The notes under the pieces are model-generated. The model was not told the DNA's origin. It did no database searches and worked only from the letters and a program-made list of their open reading frames with translations. Source: Clostridium aceticum (GTDB taxonomy: Bacteria; Bacillota; Clostridia; Peptostreptococcales; Natronincolaceae). From it: DNA of 64,000 nucleotides. The position numbers and the translations under genes are program-made. Positions 4,911 through 59,486 of the stretch are shown here, piece after piece. Within the stretch, counting starts at the first letter, position 1. Every line of letters starts with the position of its first letter. The stretch is from assembly GCF_001042715.1 (NCBI RefSeq), contig NZ_CP009687.1, positions 733,418 through 797,417 on the forward strand, read 5' to 3'.

Positions 4911-6044
4911 CTATATATCTAAAGGAAAACTGATTGATACTTTATTTTCTTTCTTAGTATTGATTAGATCAATAGAACCTTTCATCTTTTTACACAGTAT
5001 ATTATTAAACATAGATAAATGAGCTAACTGCAATTGAAAGTGCTTGTGTTCCTCTTTGTTATAGACAACTTTGATATCGAAGCAGACATTGTCTTTATTT
5101 CTATAGATAGCAATAATTAGTTTTCTGTTGTTGCTATCTAATCTATCTTTACAGCATTCTATAATATCAAAGAAAATACAATACATGATCTGTACAAATT
5201 CTTTAGGAGATCCATACTTATCAATTTTTTCCTGGATAGTTACATCGATTTGTATGTGTTCCTTGCTGATTTTTTCCTCCATAACTTCAAAAACCAGATC
5301 AAGATATTTCTCCACATTGAAGACTTCTTTTTCATAATCTACTTCAAAAAAAGCTTTGAAGTTTTCTATTTTTTTAGATAGATTATTTATGATTTCCCAG
5401 ATTTCCTTATAGTACTCTTCTAATAGGACGAGGTCTCTTTCCTCACTATGAATTTCATCGATAAGATTAATAATGGAGAAATTCAAGGCGTTAAGAGGCT
5501 GCCTCCAAGCATGAGATAAATTTGAAACCATATCTGACAAGTTGATAATTTTGTCATAATAGTTTTTTATATCTTCTACACTATATTTTTCTCTCACTCG
5601 GTATAATTCTTTACTAGTATCCTTAGTACAAATAAATACTTTGAAATGATTCGTGCTCTGTCTAAAGGAATAGGCTGTAATCTGCCAAAGTTCACAGTTT
5701 TCATCGTTGAGTGCTTCTACGTCAGCGATCTGGAAATGCTGGTTATTTTTCTTTAAATAAATATGAATATGATCTTTGGTAGGGTTTTGAAAAAAATATC
5801 CCATGATTGTATAGTATATATTTGTAAAGTCATCTTTGATACTAGAAATCTTCTTACCTAGAACTTGGTTTTTTTCAATATTTAAATACTTACAGTAATG
5901 ATCGTTTATACTATTTATGTAGCATTCAAGTTTGTTCTTTGCTACTCTGCCCTCTATCTCCAGCATGAAATTTAAAGATTGGTTTATGGAGTCAGCTAAA
6001 CTTTGATTGAGATTAATATGCTGTAATTCAAAGCCTTGATTCAA
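4911..6044 (-). CDS. Cytoplasmic histidine-kinase-like protein with H-box but degenerate ATP-binding domain
   Basis: 377 aa with no TM. It has a PAS-like N-terminal half and a HisKA-type H-box, NLSHAWRQPLNALNF. The C-terminal HATPase-like region lacks recognisable N, G1 (DxGxG) and G2 (GxGxG) boxes but keeps the terminal ...KGSIDL...ISFPL motif. Located 10 nt upstream of the response-regulator gene. Confidence 0.6.
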   Translation of the reverse strand: MNQGFELQHINLNQSLADSINQSLNFMLEIEGRVAKNKLECYINSINDHYCKYLNIEKNQVLGKKISSIKDDFTNIYYTIMGYFFQNPTKDHIHIYLKKNNQHFQIADVEALNDENCELWQITAYSFRQSTNHFKVFICTKDTSKELYRVREKYSVEDIKNYYDKIINLSDMVSNLSHAWRQPLNALNFSIINLIDEIHSEERDLVLLEEYYKEIWEIINNLSKKIENFKAFFEVDYEKEVFNVEKYLDLVFEVMEEKISKEHIQIDVTIQEKIDKYGSPKEFVQIMYCIFFDIIECCKDRLDSNNRKLIIAIYRNKDNVCFDIKVVYNKEEHKHFQLQLAHLSMFNNILCKKMKGSIDLINTKKENKVSISFPLDI

Positions 6045-6300
6045 ATGGCTCCCTCCTAACTTAGCTTAACTAAAAGTTATATAATATTTTCTGCATATCC
6101 AAACTTGACACCTTGATGAAATATAGAACTTATAGGTAGGGATAAAGTGGTAGTATAAAAATTTCTATAAGTCAATTGTAAAGAATGCAGAAGCTTGTCT
6201 ATTTCTAGTTTACTAGATTTTTATAGGATTGTCCAAAAAATTAAATTTCTAAGGGAACTTTTGTAAAACAATTTTTCTCTATTTTTTTATTGCATCTATA

Positions 6301-8446: not shown

Positions 8447-8559
8447 GAAAGAATAGGTTTAAAAGGAGATTAGACGAAAAAAAGCATCTAATATTCTTAT
8501 AAACCTATTCTTTTTAATTTTTCTATAACACAAGCTAATTATTTTTTAAAGCCCTCTCA

Positions 8560-8645
8560 AATTGCCATCCTGAGCATAGCGAAGGATCTTGAAATAACGA
8601 AGAATTTGCTTAATTCTATTTGCTTTCATATCCTCAGGATGATAA
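8560..8645. repeat. Copy of dispersed GTCATCCTGAGC / GAAGGATC repeat family (family 1)
   Basis: CCATCCTGAGCATAGCGAAGGATCTTG ... ATATCCTCAGGATGA. Core and inverted partner match the copies at 27.1, 27.3, 37.4, 40.9 and 49.9 kb. Confidence 0.65.
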
Positions 8646-8851
8646 ATCATGGCTTGAGTTAATACTAATTATTTTTCTATTAAAATTCAGTAAAAATGCT
8701 ACAAAATGGAAAAAGACAAATGGCATCATATATTTTTAAAGAATAAAAAATTATTGTTTTTCGATAAAAATATATTGAATAATAAAAAATATAATGATAT
8801 TATAGATTTGTAAATGCATAGGTATAAAGTACTCATATAGGAGGTTAGATC

Positions 8852-27059: not shown

Positions 27060-27235
27060 AAAAAACAGCCCTGTGGTATAGGAGACCACTGAAAAAGTTA
27101 TTTTTGTCATCCTGAGCGTTAGTGAAGGATCTTAATTATATTGAAAACATAAGATTCTTCAACTTTGTTTCAGAATGACAAACAAAAAACTATAGTTTTT
27201 CAGTGGTCTTGTGCTATAGAGGGCTGTTTATATGT
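27060..27235. repeat. Composite palindromic element containing a family-1 core (nested inverted repeats)
   Basis: Outer imperfect IR AAACAGCCCT..GACCACTGAAAAAG / CTTTTTCAGTGGTC..AGGGCTGTTT. Inner IR TTTGTCAT.../...ATGACAAA. Core TTTGTCATCCTGAGCGTTAGTGAAGGATCTT. Confidence 0.65.
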
Positions 27236-27274
27236 ATTTTCAATGTGATAACAAGTATAACGTTATATAATATT

Positions 27275-27392
27275 CATTAGCGTTAACTTAAACCATAATT
27301 TGGCGGCCTTCGTTATCCCAAGATCCTTCGCTACCCTCAGGATGACAGTTCGAGAAAATTTTGGTAATAACTGTGTTAAGTTAACGCCTATG
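27275..27392. repeat. Full-length family-1 MITE-like element with 17-bp terminal inverted repeats
   Basis: CATTAGCGTTAACTTAA ... CAAGATCCTTCGCTACCCTCAGGATGACAG ... TTAAGTTAACGCCTATG. Near-identical in sequence and arrangement to 49903-50011. Confidence 0.7.
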
Positions 27393-28078
27393 ATATAATA
27401 ATATTTTGGCAATAGGTATAATTTTCAATTTTCTTACTTAGTTCCATATCAAAAATTTGTAGCAGCAGGCTGCTTTCTTCACAGATTTTAGTCTGCTTTA
27501 CTTCGTTTATTTTTCTTTTTAGATCTTGTATCTCTTTTATTTCTCTTAAGACTTCCTTTTCTAGGTTATTTTGTACTAAACTCAGCACCATTCCAATTCC
27601 CCCTCATACGAATTAAAAAGAAATTATTTATAAGCTAAATATAGTACCCAAGTACTATATTTTTACATTATACCTCTTTTTTTGACAAATTTGTACATTT
27701 TTTTTCAAAATTCTTCTATAATTAAGTAGAAATATTCCCATTATCGTATTTTAAAATTGAAACTTTTTCAATAAAATATAGCCTATGAGGTTGGAAAAAC
27801 AGCAACTTTCTTGAAGAAAGTACCAATTCATGATATGATTTTAGATAATAGCAAACTAGTTGAAAGGCAAGGATACAAAGCAATGAGACTAAGGGAAAAC
27901 ACTTTTCTATGATTGCCAGGCTGCTAAACAGGTTATAGTATTGTAACCGTTTATTGGGACCTAAGAGAAAGTTTTTTTGCTTTCATGAAGAATATTTTTG
28001 ATAAAGAATATAAGCAACTTTAAAAATAGATACACTGATTTAGATAGAGTAAATTCACAAACAAGGTAGGTTTTATTA

Positions 28079-29428
28079 ATGGGCAGCAGCTATATTCATG
28101 AATTTGATATCCACGAAATGTTTAGCAGCACTGATATGCAAAAAATTTTTATTGGTGCTTCTAAGAAAAATGCGGAGGAGTTTGTTGTAATCAATATTGT
28201 AAATGATGAAAGATTTTTACAGGAAGAGACAAAGAAACAACTTCAGTGCTTAGATAACTTGATTTACTTTGAAGACCTAGATGAAGCAATTGTTCTTGTT
28301 ACTAGATTTAATAAGGCAATATATTTAACAGAATATATGGATCAAAATGTAGTCAGCATAAAAGAACGTTTAGACTTAGCTTATCAATATCTAAAAAAAA
28401 TAGCCATGTACGAGGACCTTCCAAATGATATTAAAGGAATGTTAATAGAAGAGGCTCAGGTCATTATAAAAGACGGAAATATAGCATTGAATGATTTGTT
28501 GATTATAGGTAAGAACTCAATAAGTAGAGAAGATAATTTTCAAAGAGTAAGTAAGCTTGTGGGCAGTGTCCTTAATACAATTATCTTTTCAAATACCTCA
28601 TCAAATAATAAACAGTCTCAAGACTTAAGCAAAGTATTAGAACTTATAAATAGTTTACAATATGCTACACATCAATATGAAAGTTTAAGTGGAATATTAA
28701 AGGCCTTTAACCAGTTGGATAATACTAGCACAAATCATAAAGAGGATGAAGAAGCAGAAGAACTTCCCCAACAAGATCATAAATATGCTGGAAGATCACG
28801 AAAAGAAAAACAAGGATATACGCTTAAAAAGGTAAGTGTGGGTATCTTGTTGGCTGGACTAATTATTGTGGTATTAGTACTGGTAGGAGGCGATAAGTTT
28901 ACATCCGTTGATAATAAAGTAGAAATATATTATGATTCGGAAGACAGTGATGACAATACTGTGGATCATGGAGATGAAGGCAATAGTGAAGGTCAGAATC
29001 CTTTTGCTGAGGGCAGTCATAGTTCAGAGAGGCTTGAAGAATATAAAATATCCAATTTAAATCCCGACTTTATTAAAGTGGATAAAAGTATATTTCGAAG
29101 TGGAGAATATTCTTTGAAATTTATAAACAGCACATATGATGTATCTAAGAGCATTTACTTGAATCATGTAAATCTATATAAAAACACTACTTTTTCTTTG
29201 TGGATTATGGCAGATACTTTAGAAGAAATCAGACTGAACTTTAAAGGCTATAATAACAGTCATTTAATATCTGAGAAGTTTATTTATCATAGACCTAAGG
29301 TAGCAGGAGTATGGGAAATGATTTACTTCGATGTGCCTGATGGAGAATACAATAAAATAAAATTGACGTTGTTTAATACAGATGCTACAGTTTGGATTGA
29401 TGATATAAAAATTAATTCTTATAAATAA
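28079..29428 (+). CDS. Single-pass membrane protein: ~245-aa cytoplasmic domain of unknown function, TM helix, acidic linker, C-terminal beta-sandwich (CBM/lectin-like) extracellular domain
   Basis: 449 aa. TM VSVGILLAGLIIVVLVLVGG. C-terminal ~150 aa (KVDKSIFRSGEYSLKFIN...VWIDDIKINSYK) resembles CBM_4_9-type carbohydrate-binding modules. Preceded by a ~480-nt untranslated leader. Confidence 0.5.
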   Translation: MGSSYIHEFDIHEMFSSTDMQKIFIGASKKNAEEFVVINIVNDERFLQEETKKQLQCLDNLIYFEDLDEAIVLVTRFNKAIYLTEYMDQNVVSIKERLDLAYQYLKKIAMYEDLPNDIKGMLIEEAQVIIKDGNIALNDLLIIGKNSISREDNFQRVSKLVGSVLNTIIFSNTSSNNKQSQDLSKVLELINSLQYATHQYESLSGILKAFNQLDNTSTNHKEDEEAEELPQQDHKYAGRSRKEKQGYTLKKVSVGILLAGLIIVVLVLVGGDKFTSVDNKVEIYYDSEDSDDNTVDHGDEGNSEGQNPFAEGSHSSERLEEYKISNLNPDFIKVDKSIFRSGEYSLKFINSTYDVSKSIYLNHVNLYKNTTFSLWIMADTLEEIRLNFKGYNNSHLISEKFIYHRPKVAGVWEMIYFDVPDGEYNKIKLTLFNTDATVWIDDIKINSYK

Positions 29429-31094: not shown

Positions 31095-31184
31095 GTTTTT
31101 TCGATCAGAGCCATTGAAAAGCCTACCTACGCTAATACTTATTAACTCTAAAAGAAAGAAATTAGATAAAGCTAAATAATACGA

Positions 31185-31225
31185 AAGAACCCCAAGAGTA
31201 GCCTATTATTGGGGTTCTTCTGTAT
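31185..31225. terminator. Bidirectional terminator between trpB and the convergent flotillin operon
   Basis: GAACCCCAAGAGTAGCCTATTATTGGGGTTC flanked by A/T runs on both sides. Confidence 0.6.
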
Positions 31226-31271
31226 TATCTCATCAACTTAAATTAACTTTAATAATTTATAACCATAAATC

Positions 31272-37419: not shown

Positions 37420-37500
37420 CTTTGTCATCCTGAAGGAGTTGAAGGATATTGATTGATAGCGCTGATTATAGGATCCTTCGCTATTGCTCAGGATGACACT
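37420..37500. repeat. Family-1 repeat copy (palindromic pair of cores)
   Basis: TTTGTCATCCTGAAGGAGTTGAAGGATAT ... ATAGGATCCTTCGCTATTGCTCAGGATGACACT. Confidence 0.65.
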
Positions 37501-37563: not shown

Positions 37564-37684
37564 TTATAGATGTGCGCCCCTAAATTTAAATATACTAAGG
37601 GCTACATTTGCAGCCTGCGGTTTTGAGGCGAAACCGTAGACCGTGTATATTAAAATTTAACTTTAGAAGCGCACATCTATAGAT
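37564..37684. repeat. Family-2 conserved ~70-nt structured element (copy 1) embedded in a 14-bp flanking inverted repeat
   Basis: Core ATATACTAAGGGCTACATTTGCAGCCTGCGGTTTTGAGGCGAAACCGTAGACCGTGTATATTAAAA is the reverse complement (with a few substitutions) of 58842-58913. Flanks TTATAGATGTGCGC / GCGCACATCTATAGA. Confidence 0.65.
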
Positions 37685-37711: not shown

Positions 37712-38536
37712 CTATAGATCTTTAAACTTTTCAATTTTTTCCTCCTCTAAACAAAAGGTTTTATGGAAATCCCTCCAATTAATATTGCTTCTTCTATGAT
37801 GTTGCCACTGATAGAGATCCACATAATTTCTGATAAACTGGATGCAACGTCCTGTATAATGCCTAGATATAAAGACCAGTTCTCCAGCTTCTACATCGGT
37901 ACCTATAACTGAAATTCTTATTAGAACGCTTTCATTGTCAAAAAGGCTTGATTTCAAATAGTTGAGAAGTTGAAGATTTTTTTCTTCTTGTAAGTCAATA
38001 TTCCAGTATAAGAGTTTTTCAAAATAATAATATTCTTGAGATAAATGGAGCTTTCTTTTCCTAATATTATCTTCATAAACAAACACCTCTAACACTCTAT
38101 TAACATTTACTAAAGCCCTTCCTTTGTTGCCCACTCTTACAGACAAATAAAACTTATCTTCATCCTCTTCATACTTTATATATACTTTATTGGTGATAAT
38201 AATATTTTTAGGTCTTTTCACTAAATAGTACAAGAACATACCAGTAAATAAAGAATTGATCAGTACTCCTGAAAAACCTTGAAGCACTGTAAGTAGTTTC
38301 CCTACTTTATTGACAGCGGTAATATCTCCATAGCCAATAGTGAGATAGGTAACGCCGCTAAAATAAATGGCATCGCTTAAGGAAGGTTTTTTATAGTTTT
38401 GAGAATGTGTAATGATACCATTTGTATCAACGAGGGAATCGTGTTCTATATATAAATAAGCGAAGGACAATATATTTAAAATGACAATAACTACGTAGAT
38501 TACTAACAAAACAAGAACTCTTTTTAATATATCCAT
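37712..38536 (-). CDS. Two-TM potassium channel family protein with ~170-aa C-terminal cytoplasmic domain of unknown function
   Basis: 274 aa. K+ selectivity filter TIGYGD (VTYLTIGYGDITAV) between two TM helices. Confidence 0.75.
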   Translation of the reverse strand: MDILKRVLVLLVIYVVIVILNILSFAYLYIEHDSLVDTNGIITHSQNYKKPSLSDAIYFSGVTYLTIGYGDITAVNKVGKLLTVLQGFSGVLINSLFTGMFLYYLVKRPKNIIITNKVYIKYEEDEDKFYLSVRVGNKGRALVNVNRVLEVFVYEDNIRKRKLHLSQEYYYFEKLLYWNIDLQEEKNLQLLNYLKSSLFDNESVLIRISVIGTDVEAGELVFISRHYTGRCIQFIRNYVDLYQWQHHRRSNINWRDFHKTFCLEEEKIEKFKDL

Positions 38537-38763
38537 TTTTTTACTCCTCAGGTGTGGTATAAATGTATGCCTTAAAGTTCATAGATGTATTATGTAACAC
38601 ACAAAATAAGTTTAAATTTCAATGAAAACTAGTATTAGCGTTCCCAAACCCATAAATTTTATTGCTACAGGGAAGAACTTCTATAAAACATTTCATTATA
38701 AAATATAAAAGATTCCATAAAATAAAGATTATAACCAAAAGTACCTAAAGGATGTGAAGGCAT

Positions 38764-40008
38764 TTGGATATACATAATATAGGACAAACATTAATACTAT
38801 TCATACTGTTAATCTTATCTGCTTTTTTTTCAACTTCTGAAACAGCACTAATGGCACTAAGTAGGATCAGAGTACGTCATATGGTAGAGGAAAACATTAA
38901 AGGGGCAGACTTAATTAATAAATATATAGCAGAGCCTAATAAACTCCTAGGTACAATTCTTGTAGGAAATAATATCGTAAATATAGGTGCTTCTGCCTTG
39001 GCAACAGCTATAGCTATTGATTTCTATGGTGATAAGGGGGTTTTGATTGCTACCATCGCTATGACGGTATTGGTATTGGTATTTGCAGAAATAACTCCTA
39101 AATCTCTTGCTGCTCAAAACGCTGAAAAAATATCCTTAAGGATCATAAAACCTATAGCGCTTGTAATTGTTTTACTTCATCCTATTGTGATCGTCTTTAC
39201 CTTCATTACTGGCAGATTAATGAAAATACTAGGTGCTAATACAAATAAGGTTCGCCCCTTCATTACTGAAGATGAATTGAGAACTGTTGTCAATGTTAGT
39301 CAAGAAGAAGGGGTTTTAGAAGTCCACGAAAAAGAAATGATTTATAATGTTTTTGAATTTGGTGATCAACAAATAAGAGATGTAATGGTTCAAAGAACCG
39401 ATATTATCGCAATAGATATAGAAGACACCTATGAAGAAGTTATTGAAATCATAAAAAACGAAAAATTTTCTCGCTATCCTATTTATGAAGAAGGAATTGA
39501 TAATATCGTAGGGATAATAAATGTAAGGGATTTACTTTTTGTAGATAATTTACAAGACAATTTTAATATCAAAGAATATATTAGAAAGCCGTATTATACT
39601 TTTGAGTATAAGAAAATTGCCGATTTATTTAAAGAAATGAAAAAAAACAAAGTGCATATTGCTATTGCACTAGATGAATATGGAGGAACTGCGGGGATTG
39701 TGACATTAGAGGACTTAATTGAAGAAATCGTCGGAGACATTCAAGATGAGTACGATGAATATGAAAAGGAAATCGAGGTTATTCGACAAAATGAATATAG
39801 GGTTAAAGGAAATACCAAAATCGAACTGGTGAATGAAATGATCGGTACTGCCATAGAATCAGAGGATTTTGACTCTATTGGAGGATTTATTATAGGTGAG
39901 CTAGGAAGATTTCCTAAACTGGGTGAAACCATTAATTTTAATCATATAAAATTGGTGGTAGAGGATATAGAAGGAAATAAGATTAAAAAAATAAGGATTT
40001 TCACTTGA
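38764..40008 (+). CDS. CNNM/HlyC-CorC family transporter (DUF21 TM domain + CBS pair + CorC_HlyC)
   Basis: 414 aa. 4 N-terminal TM helices, tandem CBS domains, and a C-terminal transporter-associated domain (..RVKGNTKIELVNEM..). Confidence 0.85.
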   Translation: MDIHNIGQTLILFILLILSAFFSTSETALMALSRIRVRHMVEENIKGADLINKYIAEPNKLLGTILVGNNIVNIGASALATAIAIDFYGDKGVLIATIAMTVLVLVFAEITPKSLAAQNAEKISLRIIKPIALVIVLLHPIVIVFTFITGRLMKILGANTNKVRPFITEDELRTVVNVSQEEGVLEVHEKEMIYNVFEFGDQQIRDVMVQRTDIIAIDIEDTYEEVIEIIKNEKFSRYPIYEEGIDNIVGIINVRDLLFVDNLQDNFNIKEYIRKPYYTFEYKKIADLFKEMKKNKVHIAIALDEYGGTAGIVTLEDLIEEIVGDIQDEYDEYEKEIEVIRQNEYRVKGNTKIELVNEMIGTAIESEDFDSIGGFIIGELGRFPKLGETINFNHIKLVVEDIEGNKIKKIRIFT

Positions 40009-40021
40009 AAATCCTTATTTT

Positions 40022-40693
40022 TTATAAAGCCTCTTCCAACCTTTTCATCAACGCAGTTCTTCTTTCTCTAATCATATTCATGTAGAAGGTTTCCGTTTCT
40101 TGAACCACATCTGTAGGCAATTGATTTGCTCGAAGTTCAGCTTCCATCTCTTTTAGAATGTCTTGTAGTGCAACCTTCATAGAGTCTTCTAACATATTGG
40201 CAGCTTGAAGATACTTTCTAACCACCAGTGCTTGATTTAGTGGACCTTGTGATTTTTCTGCCATATATTCTTCATAGGCCTTTCTATACAAACTATTGGC
40301 CCTTTCTACTACCAAAGCCTCTAATCTTTCAAATTTGATTTGATACTTATTTAATATAGTTTCTACTGTGACAACTTTTTTCTCTTCAGATTGTGCAGCG
40401 GGGTTATTTGAATTATTATCCTCGATTAATGAATGATCCTCTGAATTATTTTCTATATCACTTTTTAATCCATCTTCTAAATCACCTTTTAAATCATTCT
40501 CTAAACCATTCTCTACGTCATAGAAGTCCAAACTTCCAAAATCAAAAAAACCTTCGCTAAGTTCTTGTTGTAGTTGGGATCTTAATGAGTCGTCTGCACC
40601 GAAAAAATAACTGTAGCCCCACACGCCAAGACCTGCAATAATCACTAAAAAAGAAATGAAAAAAATCAATAATTTTTTCTTCATGCAATTCAC
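40022..40693 (-). CDS. Membrane-anchored hypothetical protein with acidic low-complexity linker and helical C-terminal domain
   Basis: 223 aa. N-terminal TM (LLIFFISFLVIIAGLGVWGY), D/E/G/L-rich linker, and a predicted coiled-coil C-terminus. Confidence 0.4.
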   Translation of the reverse strand: MNCMKKKLLIFFISFLVIIAGLGVWGYSYFFGADDSLRSQLQQELSEGFFDFGSLDFYDVENGLENDLKGDLEDGLKSDIENNSEDHSLIEDNNSNNPAAQSEEKKVVTVETILNKYQIKFERLEALVVERANSLYRKAYEEYMAEKSQGPLNQALVVRKYLQAANMLEDSMKVALQDILKEMEAELRANQLPTDVVQETETFYMNMIRERRTALMKRLEEAL

Positions 40694-40919
40694 TCCTTGT
40701 CGATACGTTTATAAATTTTTATTTGCCAACATGTTTGTAGGCAAGGCACAGGACCATGGGCTTTATTATACTAACGATTTTATACTGACCTTGCTTTTAG
40801 ACTATAGGCTTCATCTTAGCATGGGCGGGATCTTTAACTGTATTATACCACACTTTATCTACTGCAATAGCAGTTTAGCTTTGCCAAATTATAGGCTAGG
40901 GGTGTAGCTTCTGGCTTTG

Positions 40920-40965
40920 CTCCCCTCAGGATGACAAACTATGGTTTAGGTTAACGCTAATGATT
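40920..40965. repeat. Partial family-1 element (one core + one TIR, inverted orientation)
   Basis: CCTCAGGATGACAAACTATGGTTTAGGTTAACGCTAATGAT. Its reverse complement matches the left end of the 27275 copy (CATTAGCGTTAAC.TAAACCATA.TTTG(TCATCCTGAGG)). Confidence 0.6.
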
Positions 40966-41120
40966 TTGTATTTAAAAATTCTATAGGTCTGATCTGCATC
41001 ATCAAACATTAAAATATAGACATTATTTAGTTGATTTTTGCATTATACTTCTATAAAATAAAGCTTGTAATTTGAAAGATGTTTATAATATAATCGTGTA
41101 ATTTAGAGAGGAGCTATAAA

Positions 41121-42023
41121 ATGAAAAAAATATTTTTACTTATCTTAGCAGGACTACTTGTATTTTCTTTACTAGGCTGTAGCAATAATAGTGCCCCTAC
41201 AAATGTGGAGGAGCAAGAGGAAGGTTTTATTCCAGAAAAAATGGTTATTGGTGCAATTCCTACTCAAAATCAAGGTGATATGAGGGGAGCTATGGATAAA
41301 CTAGGTGTTCATTTGTCTGAAAAACTAGGTACAGAAGTTGAAATAGAGGTTTATCCTGATTATAACGGTGTAGTAGAGGCTATGAACTATGGTCAAGTGG
41401 ATATGGCCTATTTCGGTCCTTTGACCTATATCATTGCTAATGAAACCGGTGGAGCAGAAGCTATTATGACTCTATTAGTAAATGGAGAGCCTTATTACTA
41501 TTCTTATATGGTGACTCATGTAGATTCTCCTCTTGATAGCTTAGAGGATGTTATAGAGAATGTAGGCAATTTACAGTTTGCCTTTGGTGACGTCAACTCA
41601 ACGTCAGGCTCTCTTATCCCTACCTTAGAGTTAAAGGAAAAAGGTGTTTTTAGAGATCAAATGGATACAGACTTTAAAGAAATTTTCTATACAGGTGGTC
41701 ATGATGCGGCTGCTTTAGCAGTGCAGGAAAAAAAGGTGGAAGTAGGAGCGGTTGACAGCGCTATCTTTGAAGTAATGAAAAGAAATGGTGTCATCGATGG
41801 AGAACAGTTTAAAATTATATGGCAATCAGAGCCATTATTTCAATACCCATGGGCTGTAAAAAGAGGAACTTCGGATGAATTAAAAGAAGCTTTAAGAAAT
41901 GCATTTTTAACAGTAGAAGATCAAGAAATACTAGATGTATTTGGAGCCAGTGGATTTGCACTAGCTGAAGACAAAGATTATGAACCAGTAAGGCAAGCGG
42001 CAAAAGCTGACGGAAGGTTGTAG
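41121..42023 (+). CDS. phnD: Phosphonate/phosphite ABC transporter substrate-binding lipoprotein (PhnD family)
   Basis: 300 aa. Lipoprotein signal LLGC. PhnD-like periplasmic binding fold, followed by phnE and phnC. Confidence 0.8.
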   Translation: MKKIFLLILAGLLVFSLLGCSNNSAPTNVEEQEEGFIPEKMVIGAIPTQNQGDMRGAMDKLGVHLSEKLGTEVEIEVYPDYNGVVEAMNYGQVDMAYFGPLTYIIANETGGAEAIMTLLVNGEPYYYSYMVTHVDSPLDSLEDVIENVGNLQFAFGDVNSTSGSLIPTLELKEKGVFRDQMDTDFKEIFYTGGHDAAALAVQEKKVEVGAVDSAIFEVMKRNGVIDGEQFKIIWQSEPLFQYPWAVKRGTSDELKEALRNAFLTVEDQEILDVFGASGFALAEDKDYEPVRQAAKADGRL

Positions 42024-42029
42024 TATAAA

Positions 42030-42836
42030 ATGTTGAAGGAAATCACAGTAAAAAGCAATAAAAACTTAAAATTTCCTCCTAGTATACAAAGCAAAAAGGT
42101 CTATCTGTGGATAGGCCTTCTTGCACTCATTGTTTGGAGTGCCAATGGAACCAACTTTAACCCTTTGTTATTCAGGGATTTTGGTAATACCTTGGACTTC
42201 ATAAAAAGAAGTTTTCTTAACCCTGACTGGAGCGTTTTACCCTTGGCCTTGAAGGAGTCGATTATTACTATACAAATAGCTATCATGGGCACCGCAACAG
42301 CATTTCTCTTGGCAGTTCCTCTTGGTTTTTTAGGTGCAAAAAACACTTCACCCCACTGGAGTATTTATAGTCTTTTGAGAACTTTTCTAAGCTTTTTGCG
42401 TTCTATTCCTGAAATCGTATTTGCACTGATTTTTGTTCCTACTGTAAGCCTTGGACCCTTCGCAGGAGTGTTGGCACTGGCTCTTCATAATATAGGTGTA
42501 ATGGGAAAACTCTTTTCAGAAATCATTGAATCTGCTGATATAGGTCCTCAGGAAGCTGTTACAGCAACAGGAGCTAAAAAACAAATAATGGTGCTGTACG
42601 GTATTGTTCCTCAGGTAATCCCCCATATTCTATCCAATGCTTTTTATCGCTTAGAGGTGAGTGTTAGAGCTTCCCTTGTCTTAGGTTTAGTAGGGGCTGG
42701 TGGTGTAGGCCAACTTTTAAGTATTCACTTTAAAATGTTTCAGTATAATAAAGTTGCGGTGGACTGTTTGGTTATTATGGCTATGGTAATCATCATCGAC
42801 TATATTGGGGGCATCCTCAGGAGAAAGGTGATATAG
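42030..42836 (+). CDS. phnE: Phosphonate ABC transporter permease (PhnE family)
   Basis: 268 aa, 6 TM. Conserved PhnE C-terminus ..DYIGGILRRKV. Confidence 0.8.
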   Translation: MLKEITVKSNKNLKFPPSIQSKKVYLWIGLLALIVWSANGTNFNPLLFRDFGNTLDFIKRSFLNPDWSVLPLALKESIITIQIAIMGTATAFLLAVPLGFLGAKNTSPHWSIYSLLRTFLSFLRSIPEIVFALIFVPTVSLGPFAGVLALALHNIGVMGKLFSEIIESADIGPQEAVTATGAKKQIMVLYGIVPQVIPHILSNAFYRLEVSVRASLVLGLVGAGGVGQLLSIHFKMFQYNKVAVDCLVIMAMVIIIDYIGGILRRKVI

Positions 42837-42837
42837 T

Positions 42838-43575
42838 ATGCAGCTTATCATTAAAGATTTGAAAAAGCATTATAATAAAAAAGAAACTTTTGCCCTAGAT
42901 CATGTAAACCTCCATATTGATCAAGGAGAATTTATTAGCATCCTAGGCCTAAGTGGTTCTGGTAAATCTACTTTTATTCGTTGCCTCAATAGATTAATTG
43001 ATCCTACAGAAGGAGAGATTTATTTCGAAGGACAGGAAATAACAAAGTTAAGGGGAGAAGCCTTAAGACTCTATAGAAGGAATTTGGCAATGATTTTTCA
43101 ACACTACAATCTTATTCCTAGGATGAAGGTATTAACAAATGTGTTGGTCGGCAGGTTTGGCTATTTATCACCGCTGCAGATTCTTTTAAAACAATTTCCT
43201 AAAGAGGATGTAGAAAAAGCCAATGAGGCATTACAAAAGGTGGGTTTATTATCCTTTGCTGAGAGACCTATAAAAACATTAAGTGGAGGTCAGCAACAGA
43301 GGGTAGGGATTGCTAGGGCCCTTATTCAACAGCCTAAAATTATTCTAGGTGATGAACCAGTATCTAGTTTAGATCCTGTTACGGCTAAAGAGATTATGTT
43401 ATTGCTAAAAGAAATTAACGAAAATAGAAAAATTACTATGATGATTAATCTCCATTCAGTAGAGTTGGCTAAAACTTTTTCTACAAGAATTATAGGATTA
43501 AATAATGGAAGTATTGTTTTTGATGGGCCTCCTAGTGCCCTTGATGAAGTTGAAATTAATCGAATTTATAGATAA
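42838..43575 (+). CDS. phnC: Phosphonate ABC transporter ATP-binding protein (PhnC family)
   Basis: 245 aa. Walker A GLSGSGKST, LSGGQQQRVGIARAL, Walker B IILGDEPVSSLD. The D-E-C gene order differs from the common C-D-E. Confidence 0.85.
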   Translation: MQLIIKDLKKHYNKKETFALDHVNLHIDQGEFISILGLSGSGKSTFIRCLNRLIDPTEGEIYFEGQEITKLRGEALRLYRRNLAMIFQHYNLIPRMKVLTNVLVGRFGYLSPLQILLKQFPKEDVEKANEALQKVGLLSFAERPIKTLSGGQQQRVGIARALIQQPKIILGDEPVSSLDPVTAKEIMLLLKEINENRKITMMINLHSVELAKTFSTRIIGLNNGSIVFDGPPSALDEVEINRIYR

Positions 43576-43600
43576 ACGACCTTTTGGTCGTTTTTTTTTG
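43576..43600 (+). terminator. Rho-independent terminator after phnC
   Basis: AAACGACCTTTTGGTCGTTT + TTTTTTT. Confidence 0.7.
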
Positions 43601-43664
43601 TATAGGCTATCACCTTTTGTTGTCTCCTGCATAACTTATAGTGAAAATAGAGAGAGGAGGGAGA

Positions 43665-43949
43665 ATGATGACATTAGTACCAAGAACGCCACAATCAAAT
43701 TGCAGACCAAAACCAACACCTAAGCCAATACCAACGCCTTGTCCACAACTACCGGGAACATTGTTTAGAATTCATATTCCAGCAGGAGCAGTGATTAATT
43801 TGCTTAACCTTATAGAGCTTACTTCACCTAGTGGAATTTGCTTGATCATAAGAATTCCCGCTTTAGGAGGAAGCATAGGCAAAACTTTTTCTGCTGTAAC
43901 AGCTGCTATTGAGCAAGCTGGCGGCCAAGTAGAGATTATAGAAGAGTAG
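43665..43949 (+). CDS. Small Pro/Thr-rich, Cys-containing hypothetical protein, paralogue 1 of a tandem pair
   Basis: RBS GAGAGGAGGGAGA then ATGATG. 94 aa: MMTLVPRTPQSNCRPKPTPKPIPTPCPQLPGTLFRIHIPAGAVINLLNLIELTSPSGICLIIRIPALGGSIGKTFSAVTAAIEQAGGQVEIIEE. Confidence 0.5.
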   Translation: MMTLVPRTPQSNCRPKPTPKPIPTPCPQLPGTLFRIHIPAGAVINLLNLIELTSPSGICLIIRIPALGGSIGKTFSAVTAAIEQAGGQVEIIEE

Positions 43950-43969
43950 TATAAAAAAGAGGAGGGAGA

Positions 43970-44224
43970 ATGATGAGAACACCAGAAACAAACAATTTAG
44001 TTAGACCAACACCAACACGTTGCCCACAATTGCCAGGAACATTGATTAGAATCAATATTCCACCAGGAGCAGTAATTAATTTGCTTAACCTTATAGAAAT
44101 TACCTCCCCTGGCGGAGTTTGTTTAATTTTGAGAATTCCTATTTTAGGAGGAAGTAATCTTTTTTCAACTTTAACAGCTGCTATTGAACAGGCTGGAGGC
44201 AAAATAGAAGTTGTAGAAGAATAG
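43970..44224 (+). CDS. Small Pro/Thr-rich, Cys-containing hypothetical protein, paralogue 2 of the tandem pair
   Basis: Identical RBS/start context (GGAGGGAGAATGATGA). 84 aa, ~75% identical to paralogue 1 over the shared CPQLPGTL...AVINLLNLIE...TAAIEQAGG core, with a shorter Pro-rich N-terminus. Confidence 0.5.
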   Translation: MMRTPETNNLVRPTPTRCPQLPGTLIRINIPPGAVINLLNLIEITSPGGVCLILRIPILGGSNLFSTLTAAIEQAGGKIEVVEE

Positions 44225-44240
44225 CGAAAAAAACACTAAA

Positions 44241-44277
44241 AAAGAAGCATTGATGTATTCAATGCTTCTTTTTTATT
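44241..44277. terminator. Bidirectional terminator between the small-protein pair and the convergent glutaredoxin gene
   Basis: AAAAAAGAAGCATTGATGTATTCAATGCTTCTTTTTT. The right arm overlaps the last codons of the minus-strand grx gene. Confidence 0.65.
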
Positions 44278-49850: not shown

Positions 49851-49902
49851 TAATAAAACCTCCTTAGATTTTTACATAAACTCATAAATAAAATGTTATA
49901 AT

Positions 49903-50011
49903 CATTAGTGTTAACTTAAGTCATGCTTTGTCATTTCAAGATCCTTCGCTATGCTCAGGGTGACAAATTGGGAGGGGTTTTGGAAATAATTAGCTTAAGT
50001 TAATATCTATG
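49903..50011. repeat. Full-length family-1 MITE-like element (second complete copy)
   Basis: CATTAGTGTTAACTTAAG ... CAAGATCCTTCGCTATGCTCAGGGTGACAAA ... TTAAGTTAATATCTATG. Collinear with 27275-27392. Confidence 0.7.
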
Positions 50012-50072
50012 ATATTATAATAAAAAAATAAAAATAACAACTACAATGATACATGTCTTAGGAGGAAAAATA

Positions 50073-50342
50073 ATGCCCTATACTTATATGTTGCGATGTG
50101 CTGATGAAACCTTTTATACTGGATGGACCACAGATTTGTATAAAAGATTAAAGGTTCATAATGAAGGAAAAGGTGCCCGATATACAAGGGGAAGAGGCCC
50201 TGTAAAGCTGGTGTATTGGGAAATCTACAGTAATCGCAGCGATGCACAAAAAAGAGAAGCTAGTTTAAGACGACTTAAGCGACAAGAGAAGGAAGATCTA
50301 GTAAAATCCTTCCAACAAACCAACTGCCTGCAGATACCATAG
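50073..50342 (+). CDS. Stand-alone GIY-YIG nuclease-domain protein (UPF0213/YhbQ-like)
   Basis: 90 aa. YTYMLRC...FYTGWTTDLYKRLKVHNEGKGARYTRGRGP is the GIY-YIG motif set. RBS GGAGG. Confidence 0.75.
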   Translation: MPYTYMLRCADETFYTGWTTDLYKRLKVHNEGKGARYTRGRGPVKLVYWEIYSNRSDAQKREASLRRLKRQEKEDLVKSFQQTNCLQIP

Positions 50343-58660: not shown

Positions 58661-58841
58661 GTATTCTTCTCAACTTCTTTCTTTAAAATTTATTATAAAT
58701 TATAGGAAATTTATCTATCTTAAGGCAAATATAAAACCACAAAGAAGATTTTATCATAAACAGCGGCTTCCTACAATTATTATATGTTAAATATGCACTT
58801 TTTTTAAGTGAAGCCTATAGATAAGCAAGTTCAAACTTTAA

Positions 58842-58913
58842 TTTTGATATACACGGTCTACGGTTTCGCCCCAAAACCGTGGGCTGCAAATGTAGCCCTT
58901 AGTATATCAAAAT
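58842..58913. repeat. Family-2 conserved ~70-nt structured element (copy 2, inverted relative to copy 1)
   Basis: TTTTGATATACACGGTCTACGGTTTCGCCCCAAAACCGTGGGCTGCAAATGTAGCCCTTAGTATATCAAAATT. Two internal hairpins (CGGTTT.../...AAACCG and GGGCT-GCAAATGT-AGCCC). Confidence 0.65.
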
Positions 58914-59486
58914 TAAGTACTGATGTTGTTTATCTATACCTATGAAAGTAGAGCATGAGTATAGTATTTGATAAAAGCTATATAGTATGTTATTGTTTTA
59001 TTGACAAGTTTAGCGTTTTCTATTACATAAATAGCAAGTAAACTTCCTTTAGTAAAGAGAAATGTGAGAAAACTTTATCTAAAGGGTGGGAGAATAAAAG
59101 AAGTACATGAGGAAAAAGAAATTGTTAAATAAATATCAATATTAAACATGTTTTAAAATTAACCGTATATAAAATTATATACCCGTTAGTTAGAAAGGTA
59201 AATATTACAAAAATAACTGGCTTATTTTTAAGTTTAATTAAAAAAATTCATAAAAATTAAAATAAATTCTTGAAAAAGAACAAAAACATGATATAATAAT
59301 AACAATTGAAAAAAATCCAAAAATATTAAAAGTTTTAGCAAGAGATAAAAAATTGATAATTATTTAACAATCAAATATCGAGTGATTTACTTCATGCCGT
59401 AAATGTTGTAAAATTTGTATGAGGGGTTAGCTGTATAATGACAAAACGAGTATTTATCTCAATAGGATAGAAAGGAGTGTAAGTAA

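Follow-up and report, generated by a model that had tools for sequence, protein, structure and literature searches.

A miniature inverted-repeat element family in Clostridium aceticum and the cross-phylum hairpin, probably of Ssn type, that it carries

Several intergenic sites in one region of the Clostridium aceticum chromosome share a short core sequence, raising the question of whether this core belongs to one mobile element or is carried by several. The region is a stretch of 64,000 nucleotides (nt) of contig NZ_CP009687.1 (assembly GCF_001042715.1, positions 733,418 to 797,417 of the forward strand), referred to here as the window and numbered from its first letter. By exact protein identity it also corresponds to contig JYHU01000002.1 of assembly GCA_000949285.1, the draft genome of C. 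aceticum DSM 1496. A first-pass annotation made from the letters had read six sites as a single family resembling miniature inverted-repeat transposable elements (MITEs), unified by the core. We find that the unifying core is real, yet it is not a feature of the MITE but a hairpin that occurs across phyla and is tied to small GIY-YIG genes, putatively of the Ssn type, and that four copies in the window, A to D, form one MITE family. The explanation that we regard as probable is a MITE shell mobilised in trans that carries an Ssn-type hairpin of single-stranded DNA (ssDNA).

The MITE copies and their insertion sites

The four copies are collinear, both on reading the sequence and in an alignment of the copies, and have the following parts.

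27274-27393, minus strand: MITE copy A, 120 nt, with inverted ends at 27274-27291 and 27376-27393; a single hairpin arm, GTCATCCTGAGGGTAGCGAAGGATC, at about 27322-27346 on the minus strand; target-site duplication TATAATAT (left, 27266-27273) and TATAATAA (right, 27394-27401), matching at 7 of 8 positions.
49902-50012, minus strand: MITE copy B, 111 nt; hairpin arm GTCACCCTGAGCATAGCGAAGGAT at 49941-49964 on the minus strand; target-site duplication TGTTATAA (49894-49901) and TATTATAA (50013-50020), 7 of 8.
8526-8671, plus strand: MITE copy C, longest of the four at 146 nt; a full arm, GCCATCCTGAGCATAGCGAAGGATC, at 8564-8588 and a second, inverted half-arm, CCTCAGGATGATAA, at about 8632-8645; right inverted end at 8654-8671, left end without its outer 10 nt; target-site duplication TTTTTCTA at 8518-8525 and 8672-8679, flush with the element, 8 of 8.
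About 40914-40963, plus strand: MITE copy D, right half only, with half-arm CCTCAGGATGACAA and an inverted end at 40946-40963.

The inverted ends of A-D read TCATWRGYGTTAACTTAA... and extend for about 18-25 nt, with element lengths of 111-146 nt and no open reading frame (ORF). Within A, the terminal repeat TCATTAGCGTTAACTTAA matches its inverted partner TCATAGGCGTTAACTTAA, these repeats are shared by B, C (at its right end) and D, and both A and B end in TCATTAGYGTTAACTTAA and TTAAGTTAA..CTATGA. These two had been annotated beforehand as collinear elements of about 110-120 nt with such ends, which holds with exact limits one base wider, and two further core sites resolve into a third, longer copy (8560-8645, now C) and a right half with one inverted end (40920-40965, now D). 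Copy C represents the longer form, from which A and B derive by internal deletion. A repeat finder recovers the same core loci in the window, and all copies proved intergenic as annotated, the bordering genes coding for DUF4130/DUF2975, a methyl-accepting chemotaxis protein (MCP)/unknown, a histidine kinase/ion channel, unknown/a phosphonate-binding protein, and a hydrolase/GIY-YIG protein.

The insertion sites carry the evidence for movement. The target-site duplications, which were looked for at the copies, are AT-rich and 8 bp long at A, B and C. The sister species Clostridium formicaceticum, which is syntenic with the window from 38.4 to 59.4 kb, keeps both flanks of the orthologous B site with a single TGTTATAA and the element absent; the same site in C. 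aceticum reads TGTTATAA-(111 nt)-TATTATAA, and the two sequences become homologous again at 50012, where B has its last base. No core was found in 20 kb of the syntenic C. formicaceticum DNA. Given the duplications and the empty B site, A-D therefore behave as a MITE that duplicates 8 bp of AT-rich target, and for these four copies the earlier proposal of a non-autonomous mobile family in intergenic DNA is sustained by inverted ends, duplications and empty site together. A local segmental duplication, considered as another origin of the repeats, is ruled out by their dispersal, the presence of both orientations, the target duplications and the occurrence across phyla. The outer inverted end is specific to C. 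aceticum among the 204 loci compared, and BLAST of a 136-nt element against plasmids and phages returned no match. A search for orthologous sites of A, C and the two palindromes P1 and P2 introduced below, starting from the flotillin gene, led only to non-syntenic relatives, whose intergenic DNA was unalignable.

One copy also coincides with a rearrangement, in keeping with an earlier remark that such elements can drive them: the phosphonate ABC operon is inverted with respect to C. formicaceticum, and the left breakpoint of this inversion falls exactly at D, with window 38404-40701 collinear between the two species and 40958-43576, containing the operon, inverted. The DNA on either side of the inverted block (40702-40957 and 43577-44270 in the window; 2252-2482 and 5145-6104 in the C. 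formicaceticum locus, L202) has no counterpart in the other species. Within the right-hand segment, two small ORFs side by side, 43641-43949 and 43970-44224, are paralogues (DNA 79-82% identical, window 43725-44233) and stand in DNA absent from C. formicaceticum.

Two further sites carry the core in another setting.

27082-27209, unstranded: P1, a palindromic element of 128 nt whose inverted ends, AGACCACTGAAAAA, are its own and unrelated to the A-D ends; arms at 27106-27130 (plus strand, ATCCT/AGGAT) and 27154-27179 (minus strand, ATTCT/AGAAT); flanking 10-nt direct repeat TGTGGTATAG (27072-27081) and TGTGCTATAG (27210-27219).
37420-37498, unstranded: P2, a bare two-arm palindrome with arms at 37424-37447 (plus strand) and 37473-37497 (minus strand).

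The annotation had correctly placed the core at 27104-27131 inside a larger palindrome and described 37420-37500 as two cores in palindromic arrangement; its assignment of all six sites to one family holds for A-D and not for these two, whose ends differ. P1 and P2 are distinct from the A-D family, the hairpin core being the sole part that they share with it, and no outer inverted ends or target duplication were found at P2. Because the core occurs across phyla and is linked to GIY-YIG genes (next section), the 27104 and 37420 sites are therefore different elements sharing a hairpin. The two arms of P1 differ in sequence, yet each retains its own pairing. P1 itself occupies the loop of a stem that resembles a terminator (27063-27071/27220-27229, AAACAGCCC/GGGCTGTTT) and lies after the MCP gene, so that window 27063-27229 holds, from outside inwards, the terminator-like stem, the 128-nt inverted-end element and the two-arm hairpin palindrome; this arrangement suggests successive insertions into hairpin loops.

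The core hairpin, its spread and the small GIY-YIG genes

The core in the window, GTCATCCTGAGC...GAAGGATC, is present in at least seven copies, all intergenic. GTCATCCTGAGC occurs six times with at most one mismatch against 0.09 expected, a count reached in none of 100 shuffles, and a definition based on structure raises the count to eight arms, with one at 37424-37447 and a weaker one at 27154-27179. The conserved arm, whose sequence can also be given as GTCATCCTGAGCGNAGCGAAGGATC, is a stem-loop of about 25 nt that runs from GTC through an ATCCT stem, tandem G·A and A·G, a GC-GC step and a GNA triloop to AGGAT and a final C.

Covariation was measured in 90 distinct arms, at loci that had been selected for their protein and independently of the motif. 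Over the seven proposed pairs, 89.5% of cells are pairing compared with 78.1% in shuffles, and both sides have changed in 90 cells compared with 23 in shuffles and 8-26 in slid controls; all seven pairs show compensatory changes, and the observed score was reached in 0 of 500 shuffles. Arm variants covary (ATCC/GGAT, ATTC/GAAT, ACCC/GGGT, ATGC/GCAT, TTCC/GGAA, ACTC/GAGT), positions 9·19 and 10·18 are near-invariant G·A and A·G, GC-GNA-GC forms the apex, and G1, T2 and C25 are at least 90% conserved, giving the consensus GTCATnCTGAGCGnAGCGAAGnATC. The arms in the window fold to the same structure, with the expected hairpin as the minimum-energy fold in nearest-neighbour folding. The ATCCT/AGGAT hairpin annotated earlier is thus upheld by covariation but not by predicted folding energy, to which we return below. 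DNA mini-hairpins of the form d(GCGNAGC), for example d(GCGAAGC), are unusually stable, which would favour a role of the core at the level of DNA.

Scanning one genome per species for CCTGAGNNTAGCGAAGGATC gave at least 120 loci, about 80 of them listed. Among the matches listed, the phyla are Chloroflexota, Acidobacteriota, Planctomycetota, Bacteroidota, Pseudomonadota, Verrucomicrobiota, Gemmatimonadota, Bacillota and Patescibacteria, and the common layout is TGTCATCCTGAGCGNAGCGAAGGATCT-loop-AGATCCTTCGCTNCGCTCAGGATGACA, with solo arms and tandem partial arms present too; the core is rare in viral contigs (5 matches). Four of the 120 motif-chosen loci, again among the matches listed, have a GIY-YIG ORF of 95-113 amino acids between two arms, and such ORFs often read into the right arm, yielding a C-terminal ...DPSLRSG.

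The reciprocal test started from 80 metagenome loci picked by protein alone, 65 of which have at least 200 nt on both sides. A structure-defined arm lies within 200 nt of the gene in 63 of these 65 and an inverted pair brackets the gene in 36, with an arm density of 7.4 per kb near the GIY-YIG gene against 0.17 per kb more than 600 nt away. The hairpin-flanked proteins form a family of 93-96 (about 95) amino acids with a single domain, Pfam GIY-YIG only, that is 70-76% identical across phyla and has 8,401 cluster representatives at E<=1e-10 in the exhaustive library; PADLOC gave no defence-system match for it. A full-text literature search with the core sequence returned only unrelated primer matches, and nothing relevant on COG2827 or on GIY-YIG together with REPIN.

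This arrangement resembles that of the Ssn nucleases, single-domain GIY-YIG proteins of about 94 amino acids (CDD cd10448) whose clade is defined by cd10448 and by blastp E<1e-10 to Neisseria meningitidis SsnA, CAX49033.1 (Chenal et al., Nat Commun 2025, PMC11893778). Their ssnA genes are bracketed as SRM-ssnA-SRM by repeats called NTS in Neisseria, where they contain dRS3, and Ssn-related motifs (SRM) elsewhere; the SsnA of N. meningitidis recognises the hairpin solely in single-stranded DNA and on one strand, does not bind RNA or double-stranded DNA, and cuts a few nt upstream, mutagenesis having identified as critical the 3 nt 5' of the palindrome (GTC in NTS) and the C directly 3' of it, and the system restricts transformation in Neisseria (PMC11893778). 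The conserved Tyr17 and Glu64 of the family described here coincide with residues mutated in SsnA, which is consistent with Ssn membership, as are the protein length, the domain content and an exact Neisseria-type NTS near family member L184. Hairpin form and conserved flanks are found in the C. aceticum core, and flanking of the gene is found in other genomes and not in the window. By this analogy the core belongs to the SRM class, as a structurally distinct variant.

Other loci show how the arms are arranged. At 1453-1990 of L212, from a groundwater metagenome (the same locus recurs in L213-L221), a GIY-YIG unit sits between bioA and bioD in a biotin operon, bounded by TGTCATTCTGAG... and ...CTCAGAATGACA and with several extra partial arms between the gene and the right end. 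Acidobacteriota contigs from metagenome-assembled genomes (L004, L007, L098) carry the same arms within another palindromic backbone, which is longer, has CTAGCAGGCTGCTGAAAAACT as its ends and shows CTAG/CTAA at its junctions; the hairpin, this suggests, rides in different miniature elements in different phyla. In L087, L110, L179 and L090, full arms are preceded by partial ones in tandem, each made up of GTCATCCTGAGCG and a few further bases and recurring about every 20 nt; these may have come from slippage or repeated partial copying. Directly downstream of the flotillin gene of a close relative (L206, 4270-4389; flotillin 90% identical) lies a cluster of three hairpin arms, and the matching site of the C. 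aceticum window, about 31095-31271, is without an arm; arm content therefore differs between close relatives.

The window is otherwise low-GC Bacillota DNA with two T-box leaders and one cyclic di-GMP-I (c-di-GMP-I) riboswitch. The riboswitch, at 27840-27928, has copy A about 450 nt upstream of it and an ORF without Pfam match (28079-29428) downstream, a position from which it follows that MITE A and the nested palindrome share one long leader or intergenic region with it. A second dispersed repeat of about 103-118 nt, at 37565-37682 and, mutually inverted, at 58815-58917, has inverted repeats TATAGATG.../...CATCTATA and no Rfam match; between the copy at 37.6 kb and one in C. formicaceticum (L202 19381-19498) identity is 95%, although the coding DNA around it is only about 80-87% identical, and the repeat is either a further mobile element or an RNA under constraint. 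Finally, a 28-nt inverted match, TAGGTATTAGCGTAGGTGGGCTTTTCAA, 93% complementary, joins the intergenic sites 709-736 and 31114-31141.

Weighing the explanations

Under the explanation that we favour, the A-D shell would be a non-autonomous DNA transposon belonging to the C. aceticum lineage. A cut-and-paste (DDE-type) transposase, encoded at another place in the genome, would probably have mobilised it in trans. The payload of the shell would be the DNA stem-loop of about 25 nt of the SRM class, which, by analogy with characterised Ssn enzymes, would form only in ssDNA (during replication, transformation or conjugation) and would be bound there by a cognate Ssn-type nuclease that nicks a few nt 5' of GTC; we infer both the transposase and this recognition. 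The hairpin would have spread round the C. aceticum chromosome in at least two MITE-like shells and as bare palindromes, and, were there no cognate nuclease in the genome, the copies would be passive relics, though still effective as insertions, as hairpins and as substrates for recombination. An insertion sequence (IS) with matching ends could explain the movement of the A-D shell and would not explain the core.

Several results weigh against this explanation. The duplications sit in AT-rich DNA and are seen at only three copies, two of them with one mismatch, and the window yielded no transposase, as had been annotated, nor any autonomous partner with matching ends, nor an Ssn-type gene. Its sole GIY-YIG gene is of the UPF0213 type (below), C. 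formicaceticum keeps that gene and its neighbours without the element, and 0 of 120 UPF0213 homologues have motif-encoded N- or C-terminal tails. The predicted energy of the hairpin is weak (-2.7 kcal/mol, z about -0.8, no better than shuffles), and for this reason folding energy is not used as evidence and the structure rests on covariation, which in turn fits ssDNA and RNA alike and cannot tell them apart. The SRM search string published for the class, HGTCWYN(0-2)YYVSBRHN(0-5)WNVSBRGN(0-2)RNCYNB, was built from 29 genomes (PMC11893778); it has no match in the window, the canonical core fails it while the NTS passes, and only 3 of the 80 protein-chosen GIY-YIG loci match, one match being an exact Neisseria-type NTS near family member L184. 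This string is a search tool, not a biochemical definition. The Ssn membership of the hairpin-flanked GIY-YIG family we infer from sequence.

Could the hairpin palindromes themselves be the transposing unit? They would then form a GIY-YIG (Ssn-type) mobile element whose outer ends are lineage-specific extensions of a long hairpin, and insertion at sites that are staggered or single-stranded, hairpin loops for example, would leave 8-10-bp duplications without a DDE transposase. A-D and P1, with their unrelated ends, both carry the hairpin and 8-10-bp flanking direct repeats, P1 is nested in a terminator-like stem loop, the gene occupies the loop between arms in other genomes, and the same arms recur in the Acidobacteriota backbone; the Ssn authors, too, remark on the IS-like NTS-ssnA-NTS layout and on an analogy with repetitive extragenic palindromes (REPs) and REP-associated tyrosine transposases (RAYTs), mobility not being shown there (PMC11893778). 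Against such a unit, 245 arm pairs in other genomes show no consistent duplication at symmetric offsets and none above the tandem-arm background, and no duplication was found at the TGTCA ends of the gene-bearing unit between bioA and bioD, nor at P2. The CTAG/CTAA flanks of the Acidobacteriota backbone are typical of a different type of transposase, and we know of no strand-transfer activity for GIY-YIG enzymes, so we consider this origin of the copies unlikely. An RNA function, as a structured cis element, terminator or REP-like mRNA stabiliser with a regulatory association to the GIY-YIG genes, would accommodate the covariation, which supports a single-strand stem-loop of either chemistry, and the intergenic position of all copies, several of them after gene ends; tandem G·A pairs and GNA loops occur in RNA as well. 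Comparison of the window and eight canonical loci with Rfam, at gathering and permissive thresholds, nevertheless gave only spurious microRNA-precursor matches to long palindromes, and a promoter and terminator scan round copy A found nothing attributable to the element. The arms lie in both orientations relative to flanking genes, usually as inverted pairs, and therefore both strands carry the hairpin. The GCGNAGC apex moreover matches the DNA mini-hairpin d(GCGAAGC). N. meningitidis SsnA does not bind RNA or double-stranded DNA (PMC11893778); we judge a function as RNA very unlikely.

Closer to the copies themselves stands the UPF0213/YazA-type GIY-YIG gene at 50073-50342 (plus strand), which might be the cognate nuclease of the C. 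aceticum repeats and so extend the Ssn paradigm. Copy B ends 60 nt upstream of it and is therefore an insertion in the upstream region of the gene, and its product is a single-domain GIY-YIG protein of 89 amino acids, distantly related to the hairpin-flanked family (E about 1e-5, about 30% identical), with BH0048 (1zg2) as its nearest solved relative and sole related structure. The conservation of gene and neighbours in C. formicaceticum without the element and the absence of motif-encoded tails in its homologues, both noted above, speak against this pairing as well, and with about 7 elements in about 60 intergenic gaps (our estimate) one chance adjacency is unremarkable. The adjacency of copy B is probably coincidental and the gene is highly improbable as the partner. 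An RNA role and a UPF0213 partnership are both less likely than the trans-mobilised shell with its Ssn-type hairpin.

A bolder proposal, which we think speculative and unlikely, is that the tandem-G·A hairpin is the main pan-bacterial Ssn repeat, missed by the published motif, and that the palindromes are genuine transposing units, moved by a possibly GIY-YIG-dependent, structure-directed and loop-targeting process rather than by a conventional transposase. If it were true, the C. aceticum copies would be the first empty-site and target-duplication evidence that the Ssn repeat class moves. The first description of Ssn nucleases with their hairpin repeats dates only from 2025, and the present locus defines a G·A/GNA hairpin variant that is near-identical across phyla, tied to a very conserved GIY-YIG clade and invisible to the published pattern, adding a Gram-positive example. 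The empty site and 8-bp duplications are direct evidence that such hairpins spread round a chromosome inside miniature transposons, one copy of which stands at an inversion breakpoint. Spread of the repeats is testable in a cultivable acetogen, and new pairs of hairpin and enzyme could serve as ssDNA tools.

Comparison with known repeat systems

The closest known system is that of the SRM/NTS repeats, which are likewise hairpins of 20-50 nt oriented by a 5' GTC flank and a C after the palindrome, reach hundreds of intergenic copies in some genomes, occur in many phyla and, as inverted copies, bracket a GIY-YIG gene of about 94 amino acids. Common to the NTS, CGTCATTCCCGCGMAVGCGGGAATC, and the core described here are the GTC flank, an A-T closing pair and the trailing C. 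The stems differ, the one here having 5 bp, tandem G·A and 2 bp below a GNA triloop, whereas SRM/NTS have a fully paired, GC-rich stem of 8 bp. The C. aceticum hairpin is further packaged in inverted-end elements with target-site duplications, which PMC11893778 does not describe, and its host is a Gram-positive Clostridium, while that paper makes no mention of Clostridia, Firmicutes or target duplications.

REPs and REP doublets forming hairpins (REPINs), together with RAYTs, are also short intergenic palindromes, often inverted doublets that form long hairpins, which flank a single small nuclease gene and are thought to be recognised as single-stranded hairpins. Here, however, the gene is GIY-YIG, not an HUH/Y1 transposase (IS200/IS605-like) as in RAYT, and neither GTAG nor CGTC is fixed as a terminal tag, GTAG arising in the core only where the loop base, a variable position, is T. 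REPINs are lineage-specific, vertically inherited and without target duplications, in contrast to the present hairpin, which is near-identical across phyla. A survey paper on REPs contained none of five core-derived substrings, nor 'GIY'.

For the shell, the appropriate comparison is with bacterial MITEs such as the Correia elements of Neisseria, RUP of Streptococcus pneumoniae and bcr1 of the Bacillus cereus group. These share with the C. aceticum family a length of about 100-150 nt, terminal inverted repeats, a target-site duplication, the lack of an ORF, intergenic position in both orientations and deletion derivatives, and A-D show the terminal inverted repeats, fixed-length duplication and presence/absence polymorphism with an intact empty site that mark such elements. 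What distinguishes the C. aceticum element from these MITEs is its internal core, a cross-phylum hairpin of the nuclease-recognition type in place of IS-derived sequence.

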